A DNA stretch of 64,000 nt from Escherichia coli (lineage in GTDB: Bacteria > Pseudomonadota > Gammaproteobacteria > Enterobacterales > Enterobacteriaceae). The stretch lies in assembly GCF_003790525.1 (NCBI RefSeq), contig NZ_CP033635.1; one strand, 5' to 3'. How positions within the stretch are numbered: the first letter of the stretch is position 1; every line of letters begins with the position of its first letter. The notes beneath the pieces are model-generated. The model saw only the letters and a program-made list of their open reading frames with translations. It ran no database searches and had not been told where the DNA came from. Positions 37,538-43,568 of the stretch are shown one piece after another. A program made the translations under genes and the position numbers.

Positions 37538-38097
37538 AAAAGTGGCTAGTGACGATTGCAGCACTGTGGCTGGCCGGATGCAGCTCCGGCGAAATTAATA
37601 AAAACTATTACCAGTTACCTGTGGTGCAGGGCGGTACACAAAGTACCGCCAGCCAGGGTAATCGCCTGTTATGGGTAGAGCAGGTCGCTGTTCCTGACTA
37701 TCTGGCGGGAAATGGTGTGGTTTATCAAACCAGTGATGTGAAGTATGTGATTGCCAACAACAACTTGTGGGCCAGCCCGTTGGATCAACAGTTGCGCAAC
37801 ACTCTGGTTGCCAACCTGAGCACGCAACTGCCCGGCTGGGTGGTTGCCTCCCAGCCTCTGGGAAGCGCCCAGGATACGCTCAATGTTACCGTAACGGAGT
37901 TTAACGGGCGATATGATGGCAAGGTCATTGTCAGTGGTGAATGGCTGTTGAACCACCAGGGACAACTGATCAAACGTCCGTTCCGTCTGGAAGGGGTGCA
38001 AACTCAGGATGGTTACGATGAGATGGTTAAAGTACTGGCCAGTGTCTGGAGTCAGGAAGCCGCTTCTATTGCGCAAGAGATAAAGCGTCTACCTTAA
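37534..38097 (+). CDS. pqiC: Outer-membrane lipoprotein PqiC (YmbA), 187 aa
   Basis: Lipobox LAGC at the end of the signal peptide (MKKWLVTIAALWLAGCSS); overlaps the pqiB stop. Confidence 0.9.
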   Translation: MKKWLVTIAALWLAGCSSGEINKNYYQLPVVQGGTQSTASQGNRLLWVEQVAVPDYLAGNGVVYQTSDVKYVIANNNLWASPLDQQLRNTLVANLSTQLPGWVVASQPLGSAQDTLNVTVTEFNGRYDGKVIVSGEWLLNHQGQLIKRPFRLEGVQTQDGYDEMVKVLASVWSQEAASIAQEIKRLP

Positions 38098-38352
38098 TTA
38101 TAAAGATTTGTAAATATAACCGCCTCCGGTATGTTGCCTGAGGCGGTTTTTTTGTCTCTAACGTGCGGAAAAAGTTGTTCCTCTTCACATTTTTTGTACA
38201 ACTGACATGCCCGTGTAGCTCACAAATATGACAGTGGCGTGAATTTTGCGCATTGACGGCAGTTATGATTCGCGGTATTGCTTAACTGTGATTGCACATT
38301 TAGTAATCACTGTTTTCTTTTCCACCAGAAACCAGTATGAGGGAAACGAGGC

Positions 38353-38520
38353 ATGAAGAGACAAAAACGAGATCGCCTGGAACGGGCACATCAACGTGGT
38401 TATCAGGCCGGCATCGCCGGACGCTCAAAAGAAATGTGTCCCTATCAGACGCTGAATCAAAGGTCACAATGGCTGGGAGGCTGGCGAGAAGCCATGGCGG
38501 ACAGGGTAGTAATGGCCTGA
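38353..38520 (+). CDS. rmf: Ribosome modulation factor, 55 aa
   Basis: Translation MKRQKRDRLERAHQRGYQAGIAGRSKEMCPYQTLNQRSQWLGGWREAMADRVVMA matches Rmf; the overlapping 65-aa ORF in the track is in another frame and is rejected. Confidence 0.93.
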   Translation: MKRQKRDRLERAHQRGYQAGIAGRSKEMCPYQTLNQRSQWLGGWREAMADRVVMA

Positions 38521-38537
38521 TTCTGTCTCTTTAAAAA

Positions 38538-38570
38538 GAAACCTCCGCATTGCGGAGGTTTCGCCTTTTT
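38538..38570. terminator. Bidirectional terminator between convergent rmf and fabA
   Basis: Stem cctccgca...tgcggagg flanked by A-run and T-run. Confidence 0.7.
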
Positions 38571-38589
38571 ATACTCTGTCTGATTATTA

Positions 38590-39108
38590 TCAGAAGGCAG
38601 ACGTATCCTGGAACAGACCGACTTTCAGGTCGCTGGCGGTATAGATCAGACGACCATCAACCAGCACTTCGCCATCTGCCAGACCCATAATCAGACGACG
38701 ATTAACAATGCGTTTAAAGTGAATACGGTAGGTTACTTTTTTCGCTGTCGGCAGTACCTGACCAGTGAATTTCACTTCGCCAACGCCCAGCGCGCGGCCT
38801 TTACCTTCGCCGCCCAGCCAGCCGAGGTAGAACCCTACCAGCTGCCACATTGCGTCCAGGCCCAGGCATCCCGGCATAACCGGATCGCCAATGAAGTGGC
38901 ATCCGAAGAACCACAGATCCGGATTGATATCCAGCTCTGCTTCAACATACCCTTTGTCGAAGTTACCACCCGTTTCGGTCATTTTGACCACACGGTCCAT
39001 CATCAGCATGTTCGGTGCTGGCAATTGCGGGCCTTTAGCGCCAAACAGTTCACCGCGACCAGAGGCAAGAAGGTCTTCTTTTGTATAGGATTCGCGTTTA
39101 TCTACCAT
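38590..39108 (-). CDS. fabA: 3-hydroxydecanoyl-ACP dehydratase/isomerase, 172 aa
   Basis: Matches FabA from [30 protein letters not shown]; the ORF-track 238-aa extension runs through the promoter and is rejected. Confidence 0.95.
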
Positions 39109-39146
39109 GTTCTCTGTAAGCCTTATTTTATTGAAGCACGCAGGAT

Positions 39147-39164
39147 AGCTAACACGTGTACGCT
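39147..39164 (-). promoter_or_regulatory. FabR operator in the fabA promoter
   Basis: 18-bp palindrome agctaacacgtgtacgct (reverse complement AGCGTACACGTGTTAGCT) matching the FabR box. Confidence 0.75.
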
Positions 39165-39165
39165 G

Positions 39166-39182
39166 AACAAGTCCGATCAGTT
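39166..39182 (-). promoter_or_regulatory. FadR activator site in the fabA promoter
   Basis: Minus-strand AACTGATCGGACTTGTT matches the FadR consensus (AACTGGTCNGACCTGTT) at the expected -40 position; it overlaps the ycbZ stop codon. Confidence 0.7.
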
Positions 39183-40937
39183 CGGAATAAACCAGTTCAG
39201 CCAACGTAATGGCCATGGAAAACGGTGACGTCCTTCCTGTTGCGATGCTTGTGCGATACGTTCCTGGATGGTTTGCATCAGCGTCGTTTGGCCTTCGCCA
39301 TCCCACACCAGATTTAATAATAACGGCAGTGCGTCAGTCACATCGTCTACTGCCCAGATGGTGAATTTGCCTTCTTCTACCGCTTTCACCAGTTCACTGT
39401 GAAGACTTAAATGGCGAACGTTAGCAGTGGGGATAATGACACCTTGTTTCCCCGTTAACTCACGTTGCTGGCAAATAGCAAAGAAGCCTTCGATTTTCTC
39501 ATTTAAACCACCGACTGGCTGGGCGCGACCGAACTGATCGACTGAACCTGTGATAGCGATACTCTGATTCACCGGCACATCGGCGAGGGCGCTGATCAGG
39601 GCGCAGAGTTCAGCCATCGAGGCACTATCGCCATCCACTTCACTGTATGACTGCTCAAATGTCAGCGATGCTGAGAAGGGGATCTGTTGCTCAAGCTGTA
39701 GTTCCGACATCAGGAACGCTTGCATGATCATCATCCCTTTCGCATGGATATTGCCGCCAAGCTCCGCTTTGCGTTCGATGTCGGTGAATTCACCATCGCC
39801 AATATGCACAACGCAGCTAATGCGAGAAGGTTCGCCAAAAGCGCGTGGATGACCCGGAAATTCAATGACCGAAAGGGCGTTAATTTGCCCGATGCGTTCG
39901 CCTTCGGTTTCAATCAGGATTTGCTCCTGAAGGATCTCATCCTGCATGCGTTCAGCGAGGAAACCTTCACGCCATTCACGCTGCTGCAGCATTAAGTTTA
40001 GCTGCTCGCCGGAGAAGGTGTCGCCATCGCACAGGGAGGCGACCTCTTTACACTGGCGGAGGATCCACTGCGGGCTAAGCGGAAGTGTTTCTTGTTCACC
40101 GGTGTAGCGGGCTGCTTCGCGGATAAGTACTGGCCAGGCATCCGCTCCCGGTGCAGGTAAGTGATTATGTCTTGCGGTCAATGTTACCCAGCGACACCAC
40201 TGGCTTACTGACTCCGCATCGACAATCTGCAGAGTATCTTCAAATTCGCTATAAATAGCCTGCTCTGAAAGCTCTGGTTCCATCTCCTGGAAATCAGCCA
40301 ATGATTCACGTTCGCCTACCAGAATGACTTTCAGCTTCAATGGCATCGAAGGCACAGAGACGGGGAGAGGGCGCGACTCATCAAACGCAACCCAGTCAAA
40401 ACGCTCGCGGTTAACGATATTTTTCAGCCGCATCCACAGCAGAGGTTGCGCCAGCAGTGTACGCAAAGAGATGATGAGAATACCGCCATTTGCCTGATGC
40501 ACCAGACCAGGCTGCAGGGTAATGTCGCCATTAAACTGGCGCAGGCAGCCAAAGAGTTGTTCCGCTTCTACCCAGTCGGCAGCGACAACTTGCGTTAAAG
40601 TCGCAAAATTATCATCTGCACTCACTGCGTTACGTAAGCGGATGGTGTGCCCGGAAACCTCATAGTGACAGCCCACCAGTTGGCCTGCATCGCTTTGTAG
40701 CGCACGCGCGGCATCGGCAATAAGATTCAGATACTCAGACTCTTCCGGGGCCTTCGCCAGCATAAAAGAGGAGGATGCTCGCGTATGCAGCAACTGCTCC
40801 AGCGCAAATTGCAGTCGCGGTTGAGTATCACTGAATAAAGGATCGTTTTCGTCAATCAAATGTGGCTGAGCAAATATTTCCTGATAGCTATCGGTATCAG
40901 GAACCAGGTCACGCCATGCAAGTTTCGTAATGGTCAA
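39177..40937 (-). CDS. ycbZ: Lon-like protease homolog YcbZ, 586 aa
   Basis: C-terminal Lon S16 proteolytic domain with the catalytic serine in DGDSAS and the partner lysine in GGLNEKIEG; no canonical Walker A (GxxxxGK[ST]) visible in the N-terminal part. Confidence 0.9.
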
Positions 40938-41122
40938 AGTTGATGTTTTTTAGTCTGTTGTCAAAGCCGCGATTATACCGTAACCGGCACTGCAGCACAC
41001 GTAGAAAGCACCGACAATACTCCTGGCATGGGCGTTAAAGCTCACAGGATGGAGATTCTTTTCTTCACTGGCCCAAAAAGCTGATATTCTGTAAAGAGTT
41101 ACACGGTAACATTGAGATCGCT

Positions 41123-41575
41123 ATGAAATATCAACAACTTGAAAATCTTGAAAGCGGTTGGAAATGGAAGTATCTGGTGAAGAAGCATCGCGAAGGGGAG
41201 TTAATCACCCGTTACATAGAAGCCAGTGCCGCCCAGGAAGCCGTCGATGTGTTGCTCTCGCTGGAAAATGAACCCGTGCTGGTAAATAACTGGATTGATA
41301 AGCATATGAATCCGGAACTGGTCAATCGCATGAAGCAGACCATTCGGGCCAGACGGAAGCGCCATTTTAATGCGGAACACCAGCATACGCGCAAAAAATC
41401 GATCGATCTGGAATTTATTGTCTGGCAACGTCTGGCTGGTCTTGCGCAGCGTCGCGGTAAAACGCTTTCTGAAACGATTGTTCAGCTGATTGAAGATGCG
41501 GAAAACAAAGAGAAATACGCGAATAAAATGTCTTCTCTGAAGCAGGATCTGCAGGCATTGCTGGGTAAGGAATAA
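41123..41575 (+). CDS. matP: Macrodomain Ter protein MatP, 150 aa
   Basis: Matches MatP ([26 protein letters not shown]...), with C-terminal coiled-coil. Confidence 0.93.
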
Positions 41576-41607
41576 CTGTCAAAAGTCACTTCAATTTACT
41601 AAAGGCG

Positions 41608-41638
41608 AAAAAAAACCCCGCAGCTGCGGGGTTTTTTA
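41608..41638. terminator. Bidirectional terminator between convergent matP and ompA
   Basis: A-run, stem accccgcag / ctgcggggt, T-run. Confidence 0.75.
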
Positions 41639-41650
41639 CCAGACGAGAAC

Positions 41651-42703
41651 TTAAGCCTGCGGCTGAGTTACAACGTCTTTGATACCTTTAACTTCGATCT
41701 CTACGCGACGATCCGGAGCCAGGCAGTCGATCAGTGCAGCACGCTGTTTCACGTTGTCACAGGTGTTGCCAGTAACCGGGTTGGATTCGCCCATACCACG
41801 TGCGGAGATTTTGTCTGCCGGGATACCTTTAGAGATCAGGTAATCAACAACGGACTGAGCACGACGCTCGGACAGAGCCTGGTTGTAAGCGTCAGAACCG
41901 ATGCGGTCGGTGTAACCCAGAACAACTACGGAACCGTCTTTCGGATCCAGGTTGCTCAGCTGGCTGTACAGCTGATCCAGAGCAGCCTGACCTTCCGGTT
42001 TCAGGGTTGCTTTGTTGAAGTTGAACAGAACGTCAGACTTCAGAGTGAAGTGCTTGGTCTGTACTTCCGGTGCCGGAGCTGGAGCCGGAGCAACTACTGG
42101 AGCTGCTTCGCCCTGACCGAAACGGTAGGAAACACCCAGGCTCAGCATGCCGTTGTCCGGACGAGTACCGATGGTGTGTGCGTCACCGATGTTGTTGGTC
42201 CACTGGTATTCCAGACGGGTAGCGATTTCAGGAGTGATCGCGTACTCAACACCGCCAGCGAAGACCGGAGAAACGCCGGTGTCGTGGTCTTTAGTGGATG
42301 CGCCACCAGGTACGTTAGACTTGGTGTCTGCACGCCATACCATACCACCCAGACGAGTGTAAACGTCCAGATCGTCAGTGATTGGGTAACCCAGTTTAGC
42401 GGTCAGCTGAACGCCCTGAGCTTTGTATGCGCCGTTGATGTTGTCGCCTTTGTACGGCATACGACCTAACCAGTCGTAACCCATTTCAAAGCCAACATAC
42501 GGGTTAACCTGGTAACCACCAAAAGCACCTGCACCCAGTTGGTTTTCGTGGGTCGGACCATTGTTAGGAATAAAACCAGTGTCATGGTACTGGGACCAGC
42601 CCAGTTTAGCACCAGTGTACCAGGTGTTATCTTTCGGAGCGGCCTGCGCTACGGTAGCGAAACCAGCCAGTGCCACTGCAATCGCGATAGCTGTCTTTTT
42701 CAT
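41651..42703 (-). CDS. ompA: Outer membrane protein A, about 350 aa, non-K-12 loop allele
   Basis: Signal peptide [21 protein letters not shown], 8-strand barrel, APAPAPAP hinge, OmpA-like peptidoglycan-binding C-domain; loop regions ([22 protein letters not shown]) differ from K-12 as I recall it. Confidence 0.95.
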
Positions 42704-43058
42704 TTTTTGCGCCTCGTTATCATCCAAAATACGCCATGAATATCTCCAACGAGATAACACGGTTAAATCCTTCACCGGGGATCTGCTCAATATTAACTCT
42801 ACCGATATCTTCGGCTTATGCCGAGCACCCCTGGCGATGTAAAGTCTACAACGTAGTTGAAAACTTACAAGTGTGAACTCCGTCAGGCATATGAAAAAAA
42901 AGTCTTGTATAAGGTACGTTTAATCTTTTTTGTCAGCGACAATTTACAGAAGAAAATCGCGGAAACCGCTTCAGACAAGCCTCTGCAAGGAAAATTAGTC
43001 ACGACTGAAAGCATTGGCTGGGCGACAAAAAAAGTTCCAGGATTAATCCTAAATTTAC

Positions 43059-43568
43059 TTAATGATACAAATTAGAGTGAATTTTTAGCCCGGAAAGTTG
43101 TCTCGTTGCGTGAGAGGAAGCGCTTACCGGACGCATAATAAACCCCATAGCGTTACCTTCATTTGCCGCATCAACAAGTTCAGCATGCTCTTCTTCAGTC
43201 AAATCATCTGCCAACCAACCGATCACCACACTGTAATTGCCCGTGCGTAAAGCGCGAACCATTGACTCCACGGTGTGGCAAGGGGAGAGCTGGCTAATCT
43301 GCATTACTTTCGTTAAGGGTAGCCCAGATGCCTGAACCCATTCGCGACTCAGTTTTTGTTGCGGTGTTAACCAGAGTTGCCAGCGCGATTGCTGACCGAG
43401 TTGCTGTAACAATGGCAACAGTAGAAGTTGCGTCATCATGGGCTGATCTTCGCGATAGACAACTTCACTGATAAGCCCGGCTGTAGTGTTTTCCGTAGAG
43501 ACACGCGCAATTTTACTTGCTGCGGATGAGAACGACGAAGAACGATGTGCATAGCCTGAAGTGTACAT
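43059..43568 (-). CDS. sulA: SOS cell division inhibitor SulA, 169 aa
   Basis: Matches SulA from [41 protein letters not shown]. Confidence 0.94.

Follow-up and report, generated by a model that had tools for sequence, protein, structure and literature searches.

Proteases of the LonC type do not hydrolyse ATP and need none to break down unfolded substrates (PMC3391209; PMC13069640; PMC9569914). In MtaLonC of Meiothermus taiwanensis, which is grouped with TTC1975 of Thermus thermophilus as MEROPS S16.007, the catalytic residues are numbered S582 and K625 (PMC3391209; PDB titles), and one ATP-gamma-S molecule is bound per subunit in the presence of a Walker-A-like sequence, GPPSLGKHE (PMC3391209). 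The Asp-Ser active-site signature of LonB and LonC has been described (PMC9569914). Liao et al. (2012) gave consensuses for two insertions specific to LonC within the protease domain, the first being CX3GLX(G/E) in the alpha3-beta9 loop and the second hydrophobic-X2-A-hydrophobic in helix alpha5 (PMC3391209). An extension of about 150 amino acids in MtaLonC's AAA alpha/beta domain forms a helical hairpin, which serves substrate recognition and chaperone activity (PMC13069640) and which belonged to the structural definition of LonC between 2013 and 2024. In the Lon tree of 2012, E. coli was placed among the species with more than one Lon subfamily (PMC3391209). The archaeal LonB of Thermococcus onnurineus (TonLonB, PDB 3K1J) possesses intact Walker A and B motifs and depends on ATP, and an insertion in its AAA domain anchors it in the membrane. 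In LonA of E. coli (protease La), the S16 protease fold and the Ser-Lys dyad go together with a Pro-Ser active-site signature, AAA+ motifs of the canonical kind and a large domain at the N-terminus that binds substrates.

The window analysed here is a stretch of Escherichia coli DNA of 64,000 nucleotides. The ycbZ coding sequence occupies positions 39177-40937 on the minus strand and encodes 586 amino acids from a TTG start to a TGA stop, in agreement with RefSeq ycbZ in both coordinates and length. Its product is named 'AAA family ATPase' in RefSeq and 'putative ATP-dependent protease' in K-12. The gene order in RefSeq is rmf (+), fabA (-), ycbZ (-), matP (+), ompA (-). The fabA gene (38590-39108, minus strand) lies on the same strand 68 bp 3' of the ycbZ stop codon, and matP (41123-41575, plus strand) starts 185 bp upstream of ycbZ on the other strand, so that the coordinates confirm the divergent orientation of the two genes. 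Over 3.2 kb around ycbZ, the DNA matches that of E. coli SMS-3-5 with 100% identity, and 5425 of 5426 complete E. coli genomes contain the region. Disruption of ycbZ by an IS4 element in the four top BLAST matches was considered and ruled out, the element being situated between matP and ompA. An Rfam scan of positions 38000-43200 found no known RNA family. Compared with K-12, ycbZ contains 28 nucleotide differences, 20 of them silent; 8 of the 586 residues are not those of K-12 b0955, with no catalytic residue and no residue of the ribosome-arrest motif among them, and the DNA between the ycbZ stop codon and the fabA ATG is identical. With so few substitutions, none at key positions, and this identical stretch, the K-12 literature is valid for the gene of the window.

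The Lon S16 protease domain of YcbZ comprises residues 345-547 (39297-39905, minus strand), as delimited by Pfam Lon_C, the PDB alignments and the invariant columns; the Lon_C match itself covers residues 435-539 (E=4e-10). The catalytic serine, Ser438 (codon 39624-39626, minus strand), is found in DGDSAS (residues 435-440), where it is preceded by Asp437 as in the LonB/LonC type. The partner lysine, Lys481 (codon 39495-39497, minus strand), is found within GGLNEKIEG (residues 476-484). Both align with the catalytic Ser and Lys of MtaLonC and form the dyad that characterizes the Lon domain of peptidase family S16. An alignment of 58 relatives shows no variation in the Gly-Asp-Ser and Lys columns or at many neighbouring positions of the active site, and GDS and the Lys are kept in all homologues checked, including those of Vibrio and Haemophilus. 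This invariance and the match to solved LonC structures (E=2e-57) speak against a chance occurrence of the motifs. Both LonC-specific insertions are present. Insertion 1 (residues 489-496, CQQRELTG; 39450-39473, minus strand) deviates from the consensus once in E. coli, having E for G, and its counterpart in relatives reads CxxxGLTG. Insertion 2 (residues 516-520, LVKAV; 39378-39392, minus strand) aligns to VLEAV of MtaLonC. The C-terminal tail (residues 557-586; 39180-39269, minus strand) is the part of the structural model with the lowest confidence (pLDDT 51-55); it holds the published ribosome-arrest residues W579, L580, P585 and N586 (PMC8848927), all identical in the YcbZ of the window.

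The N-terminal part of the protein has lost both nucleotide-binding motifs. A pattern search of the whole protein found neither G.{4}GK[ST] nor [AG].{4}GK[ST], nor even the dipeptide K[ST]. The hhhhDE strings of YcbZ occur only at residues 182-187 and 527-532, neither of which aligns with the Walker B position. Structure prediction with AF2, based on an alignment of 58 relatives (pLDDT 90.5, pTM 0.86), gave a degenerate AAA+ alpha/beta subdomain with high confidence at residues 1-238 (40224-40937, minus strand), in which the P-loop is absent. It is followed by the helical lid (alpha) subdomain at residues 239-336 (39930-40223, minus strand), delimited by the model helices at 241-336 and the alignment with MtaLonC. 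Thus, YcbZ is predicted to keep the AAA+ fold while its nucleotide-binding loop is gone. Pfam AAA_32 matches the protein partially, at residues 140-225. A confident AAA+ match with intact Walker A and B, which the first-pass annotation had named as the evidence that would speak against its reading, was looked for and not found. That annotation had recognized the catalytic serine and lysine, had seen no Walker A motif and had suggested an ATP-independent or degenerate Lon-like protease; its first two observations stand, and the third is supported by the missing Walker motifs and by the ATPase-dead LonC relatives.

The position of the lost P-loop could be assigned to residues 58-69 (40731-40766, minus strand) from the MAFFT register and the predicted fold. 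The model has a strand at 58-62, a four-residue loop and a helix at 67-80, which corresponds to the strand/P-loop/helix position of AAA+ proteins. The MAFFT alignment sets this stretch against GxxGxGK[HTS] (YNLYVMGxxGxGKH) of long LonC forms, and YcbZ reads AKAPEESEY there, with no Gly or Lys aligned to the motif. When the N-terminal 100-110 residues of both lineages, short and long, were compared by hhalign, the same register was returned without reaching significance (P=0.018, probability 2.6%), and a PDB sequence search with the N-terminal 148 residues alone found nothing at E<=10. Judging from the predicted fold and the alignment register, the P-loop of YcbZ is replaced by an acidic loop (KAPEESEY). 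At the Walker B position (residues 151-158; 40464-40487, minus strand), GGILIISL aligns to GGYLILDA of MtaLonC, and both Asp and Glu are lost. Between these two sites, the alignment with long forms shows a gap of about 150 columns in YcbZ. A short beta-rich segment of about 60 residues (82-142; 40512-40694, minus strand; model strands at 87-142) stands in place of the helical-hairpin extension of LonC, and Pfam LonC_helical (PF20437), which long relatives do carry, has no match in YcbZ.

Both sequence and fold place YcbZ nearest to LonC rather than to LonA or LonB. In the PDB sequence search, its best solved relatives were MtaLonC/TTC1975 (E=2e-57 over residues 140-547), followed at a distance by TonLonB (E=3e-15) and LonA proteins (near 1e-4). 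The NCBIfam LonB model TIGR00764 scored 85.7 bits against a cut-off of 516.6, and the LonA models TIGR00763 and NF008053 matched the protease tail only, with 29-31 bits against cut-offs of 608-891. In Foldseek comparisons the YcbZ model reached TM 0.82-0.84 to MtaLonC crystal chains, normalised either way, 0.72 to TonLonB and less than 0.4 to LonA. YcbZ shares with MtaLonC/TTC1975 the Asp-Ser/Lys catalytic site and both insertions, and like them it is without an N-terminal LonA domain, a transmembrane segment and functional Walker A/B. Unlike TonLonB, it has neither intact Walker motifs nor a membrane-anchoring insertion; with LonA it has in common the S16 protease fold and the Ser-Lys dyad, whereas the N-terminal LonA domain, the canonical AAA+ module and the Pro-Ser signature are absent. 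YcbZ fits the 2012 sequence definition of LonC by its two insertions and by having no canonical Walker A or Walker B Glu, whereas the later structural definition, based on the helical-hairpin extension, does not cover it. The Walker-A-like remnant of MtaLonC has no recognizable counterpart in its sequence. YcbZ is also shorter (586 against 719 amino acids). The most fitting description is that of a reduced form within the LonC lineage, more degenerate than MtaLonC in three respects: the P-loop position reads AKAPEESEY instead of GPPSLGKHE, the hairpin insertion is missing, and the Walker B Asp kept in MtaLonC is replaced by Ser.

Taken together, these data make it likely that YcbZ belongs to the LonC lineage as a soluble serine protease of the Lon type, with a working Ser438-Lys481 site and an AAA+ module acting only as a structural scaffold. 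The protein would be ATP-independent, judging from the missing motifs and from characterised LonC relatives that are about 25% identical to it overall. By homology with MtaLonC and TTC1975, YcbZ would assemble into a ring with an internal chamber and would cut unfolded or loosely structured polypeptides without ATP hydrolysis. The acidic replacement of the P-loop suggests that, unlike MtaLonC, it probably binds no nucleotide at all. Selection of substrates may also differ from that of MtaLonC, since the helical-hairpin extension is absent.

A HMMER scan of 1.84 billion cluster representatives yielded 3102 relatives of YcbZ, among which short and long groups could be distinguished. The YcbZ-type group comprises proteins of about 540-680 amino acids, none of which has a Walker-A-like motif. 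Its members of about 545-610 amino acids match YcbZ end to end; forms of about 650-680 amino acids (e.g., in Aeromonas and Pseudidiomarina) match only from about residue 100-140 onward. The position of the Walker B Asp is mostly occupied by S, A, G or P in this group, and a few members keep Asp. The long group, of about 700-850 amino acids, matches YcbZ only from residue ~140; it usually has GGYLxLDA, and many of its proteins have GxxGxGK[HTS] near residue 60. Neither group shows any variation at the catalytic Gly-Asp-Ser and Lys. Long gammaproteobacterial LonC paralogues (786-806 amino acids, GQNGLGKR type), such as those of Vibrio hepatarius (L060) and Shewanella xiamenensis (L061), are about 38% identical to YcbZ over the region from Walker B to the protease domain and have the same catalytic motifs. 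Unlike the YcbZ type, they have retained the long insertion, a motif resembling Walker A and the Asp of Walker B. AsrA of Pseudomonas aeruginosa (PA0779), a Lon-type protease induced by tobramycin, may be another member of the long group. Six Vibrionaceae genomes contain one YcbZ-type gene plus one long LonC gene each, which shows the YcbZ type to be a paralogous lineage in its own right rather than a product of local decay.

The P-loop-less lineage is almost invariably linked to fabA. With one genome taken per species, 41 P-loop-less genes came from Enterobacterales, Vibrionales, Pasteurellales, Aeromonas, Pseudidiomarina and Oceanisphaera, and in 40 of them fabA followed immediately downstream after a gap of 63-204 bp; it did so for none of 39 long LonC genes (Fisher p=8e-22). 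On metagenomic contigs, fabA was the next gene on the same strand after all nine P-loop-less relatives and after none of three long LonC genes. Since matP was upstream in 33 and rmf downstream in 27 of the 41 loci, compared with 40 for fabA, the protease-fabA pair outlasts its flanks.

At the junction of the two genes, coding sequence and control elements overlap. The FadR operator of fabA, AACTGATCGGACTTGTT (39166-39182, minus strand), takes in the codon for Asn586 together with the stop codon of ycbZ, whose TGA (39177-39179) makes up nucleotides 4-6 of the operator. The FadR site of fabA was defined in the early 1990s. The FabR palindrome of the fabA promoter, AGCGTACACGTGTTAGCT, lies next to it (39147-39164, minus strand). 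A 56-nt E. coli fabA probe that is shifted by FadR in EMSA (2015; Table 2, PMC4537474) corresponds base for base to positions 39136-39191 of the window (minus strand), and it spans the four final sense codons of ycbZ, its stop codon and then the FabR palindrome. In Escherichia, Citrobacter, Superficieibacter, Enterobacter, Yersinia, Rahnella, Grimontia, Salinivibrio and Aliivibrio, the three nucleotides of the TGA stop fall at identical positions of a FadR-like operator, and in Photorhabdus, Providencia, some Vibrio and Aeromonas a FadR-like operator begins 3-40 nt past the stop. The arrangement with the stop inside the operator thus recurs in Enterobacterales and Vibrionales.

The 68 bp from the ycbZ stop codon to the ATG of fabA contain no terminator-like site, and on the fabA strand a single terminator is convincing, a bidirectional hairpin past fabA (38538-38562). 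Another terminator-like hairpin, in the 5' end of ycbZ (40878-40903, minus strand), was judged a chance occurrence, having three G-C pairs and a poor T-tract; with 5 terminator-like sites in all, the region does not clearly exceed shuffled sequences (2.9 +/- 1.6). A promoter scan of positions 38450-41250 gave no sigma-70-like site and fewer hits than the shuffles, which is uninformative because the fabA promoter is activator-dependent; activation of this promoter by FadR is documented. As ycbZ has no terminator of its own, its transcripts continue into fabA, and RNA-seq described a ycbZ-fabA operon in 2014 (PMC4161252). It is therefore supported that ycbZ transcripts run through the FadR and FabR operators into fabA. 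The first-pass annotation had put the ycbZ stop inside the FadR site and had expected readthrough into the fabA control region; the operator sequence and the EMSA-shifting probe bear out the former, and the absence of a terminator together with the RNA-seq operon supports the latter.

A wider interpretation, which we consider doubtful at present, is that the YcbZ type is a distinct LonC lineage that lost its nucleotide site and hairpin, has stood in an operon with fabA since before the split of Enterobacterales, Vibrionales, Pasteurellales and Aeromonas, and is functionally linked to it. Either the protease would act on the unsaturated-fatty-acid and membrane-lipid system, or ycbZ expression, including ribosome arrest, would set fabA output. 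It can also be supposed that the main selected role of ycbZ is in cis, with its transcription, translation and arrest over the FadR operator tuning fabA and with the drug phenotypes of ycbZ disruptions being at least partly polar effects on fabA. This supposition could draw on the adjacency of the genes in 40 of 41 genomes of the P-loop-less lineage, the terminator-free operon junction (PMC4161252) and the stop codon within the operator in two orders. A strong ribosome arrest was also reported one codon before the ycbZ stop, Pro585 occupying the P site and Asn586 the A site (PMC8848927). Under erythromycin selection, loss-of-function mutations of ycbZ arose repeatedly in two independent evolution studies, and they include indels and structural variants. 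A reconstructed mutant with inactivated ycbZ showed cross-resistance against erythromycin, EDTA, norvaline, 5-fluoroorotate and an alkylamine, a breadth that includes EDTA and the alkylamine and fits the same supposition. However, purifying selection clearly acts on the YcbZ protein sequence, Pro585 and Asn586 show poor conservation from one genus to another, the stalled ribosome would be about 50 nt from the fabA ribosome-binding site, and fabA has a FadR-activated promoter of its own. A predominantly cis-acting role is hence unlikely.

The physiological substrate of YcbZ had been called poorly defined in the first-pass annotation, and its function is indeed described as uncharacterised in the literature (PMC8848927). 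Increased stop-codon readthrough was observed in a ycbZ mutant and was rescued by a plasmid copy, according to Gagarinova (2016) as quoted in PMC8848927. This phenotype and the erythromycin phenotypes suggest that YcbZ has targets in or near the translation apparatus. Turnover of DgcE was unchanged by deletion of ycbZ in a 2019 paper, which states in passing, without data, that YcbZ "lacks ATPase activity"; no biochemical or ATPase assay of YcbZ itself was found in the searchable literature. In a bacterial two-hybrid library, residues 565-586 of YcbZ (its last 22) were a hit for RNase E, and the full-length protein also interacted. These signals, the chaperone mode of MtaLonC (PMC13069640) and the fact that no YcbZ substrate was ever identified (PMC8848927) would be compatible with a protein working mainly as a chaperone, scaffold or regulator, for example as a partner of RNase E or the ribosome, in which the Lon domain is a binding module. 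However, the invariance of Gly-Asp-Ser, the Lys and many of their neighbours in 58 diverged relatives would be unexpected for a vestigial site, and the chaperone activity of MtaLonC is tied to the helical-hairpin extension that YcbZ does not have, so that a mainly non-proteolytic role is very unlikely. That YcbZ is a conventional ATP-dependent AAA+ Lon, whose nucleotide site would be unusual but still work, as its public names, the AAA_32 match at residues 140-225 and the AAA+ fold of the N-terminal domain might imply, is hardly tenable, given that no Gly-rich loop or Lys-Ser/Thr exists anywhere in the protein and the aligned P-loop position is acidic, that Walker B Asp and Glu are both replaced, with like losses in every representative of the lineage (a few keep Asp), that the nearest relatives are enzymatically ATPase-dead (PMC3391209), and that the LonA and LonB models score far under their cut-offs.

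The reading of YcbZ as a LonC-lineage protease with a retained dyad and a scaffold-like AAA+ module rests in part on published work: the ATP independence of LonC and the presence of E. coli in that analysis (2012), the ycbZ-fabA operon (2014), the FadR probe (2015) and the statement on YcbZ ATPase (2019) have all appeared before. What is added here is that YcbZ is more degenerate than MtaLonC and that the P-loop-less lineage is linked near-invariably to fabA, which is a modest lead and no discovery. Discussion of this linkage or of the recurrent stop within the operator was not found in the searchable literature. Thousands of enterobacterial entries bear the misleading names 'AAA family ATPase' or 'putative ATP-dependent protease', and the result is of value for their annotation. 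It would be useful to learn whether the cross-resistance brought about by loss of ycbZ arises via proteolysis of a translation factor or via fabA and the membrane. If ycbZ expression does set fabA output, part of the multidrug phenotype would come about through membrane lipid composition.

In 40 of 41 species-level genomes, which span several orders of gammaproteobacteria, the P-loop-less LonC-type gene is directly followed by a co-oriented fabA (window 38590-40937 (-); loci L002-L009, L012, L013, L017-L055 and L067). None of the 39 long LonC paralogues lies directly upstream of fabA (Fisher p = 8e-22 against the P-loop-less genes). The protease-fabA pair is also retained in the genomes that lack the matP or rmf flanks. 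The sole exception to the linkage is the P-loop-less gene of Aliidiomarina celeris (L058), whose product is of intermediate length (668 aa) and keeps the Walker B Asp; fabA was not found within 3 kb downstream of it. In one metagenomic contig (L007 2949-3451), fabA 3' of the protease gene is broken into two short ORFs, likely by a frameshift or an assembly error.

Six Vibrionaceae genomes carry both gene types, namely the short fabA-linked gene without a P-loop and a long paralogue of about 790 aa, which contains GQNGLGKR and GGVLLMDA and is located away from fabA. The short/long pairs are L036/L060, L040/L056, L054/L072, L046/L073, L043/L074 and L035/L069.

Across six genera of enterobacteria and three of Vibrionaceae, the TGA stop of the protease gene falls at an identical place within the FadR operator (NNNTGATC...), always covering the same three positions; this set comprises window 39166-39182 (-) and loci L017, L018, L020, L024, L026, L027, L035, L044 and L047. 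In other genera, the operator starts 3-40 nt past the protease stop. Operator positions 1-3 are the AAC codon of Asn586 (window 39180-39182 (-)), and the published ribosome arrest, with Pro585 in the P site and Asn586 in the A site (window 39180-39185 (-)), coincides exactly with the operator start. The Pro-Asn of the arrest site is not conserved in other genera; the overlap may therefore be incidental.

Slow accommodation of tRNA-Asn in the A site has been given as the cause of the arrest (PMC8848927); this tRNA carries the queuosine modification. YcbZ protein is about 2-fold higher in a tgt mutant devoid of queuosine (PMC9508795). A connection between the two observations is not drawn in the consulted passages of either paper. 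The RNase E interactor fragment from a two-hybrid library corresponds to YcbZ residues 565-586 (window 39180-39245 (-)), the same C-terminal tail as the arrest peptide. This tail has the lowest confidence in the predicted structure (pLDDT 51-55).

At the other end of the gene, the start codon is TTG (window 40935-40960 (-)), with no obvious Shine-Dalgarno sequence in the approximately 20 nt 5' of it. The annotated start is supported by the relatives, which share N-terminal residues with YcbZ from residue 1-5 onward. In E. coli LS45 (L011 3397-4740) and three other strains, the interval from matP to ompA contains a frameshifted copy of IS4; the window lacks this copy, which leaves ycbZ untouched where it occurs.

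The first terminator-like site 3' of ycbZ on its strand lies beyond fabA: a hairpin of 11 perfectly paired bp, flanked on either side by T-runs (window 38538-38562), which is situated between the convergent rmf and fabA and looks like a bidirectional terminator.

The gene at window 39177-40937 (-) is named 'AAA family ATPase' in RefSeq and 'putative ATP-dependent protease' in K-12. Both public names are in conflict with its sequence, which is devoid of ATPase motifs.
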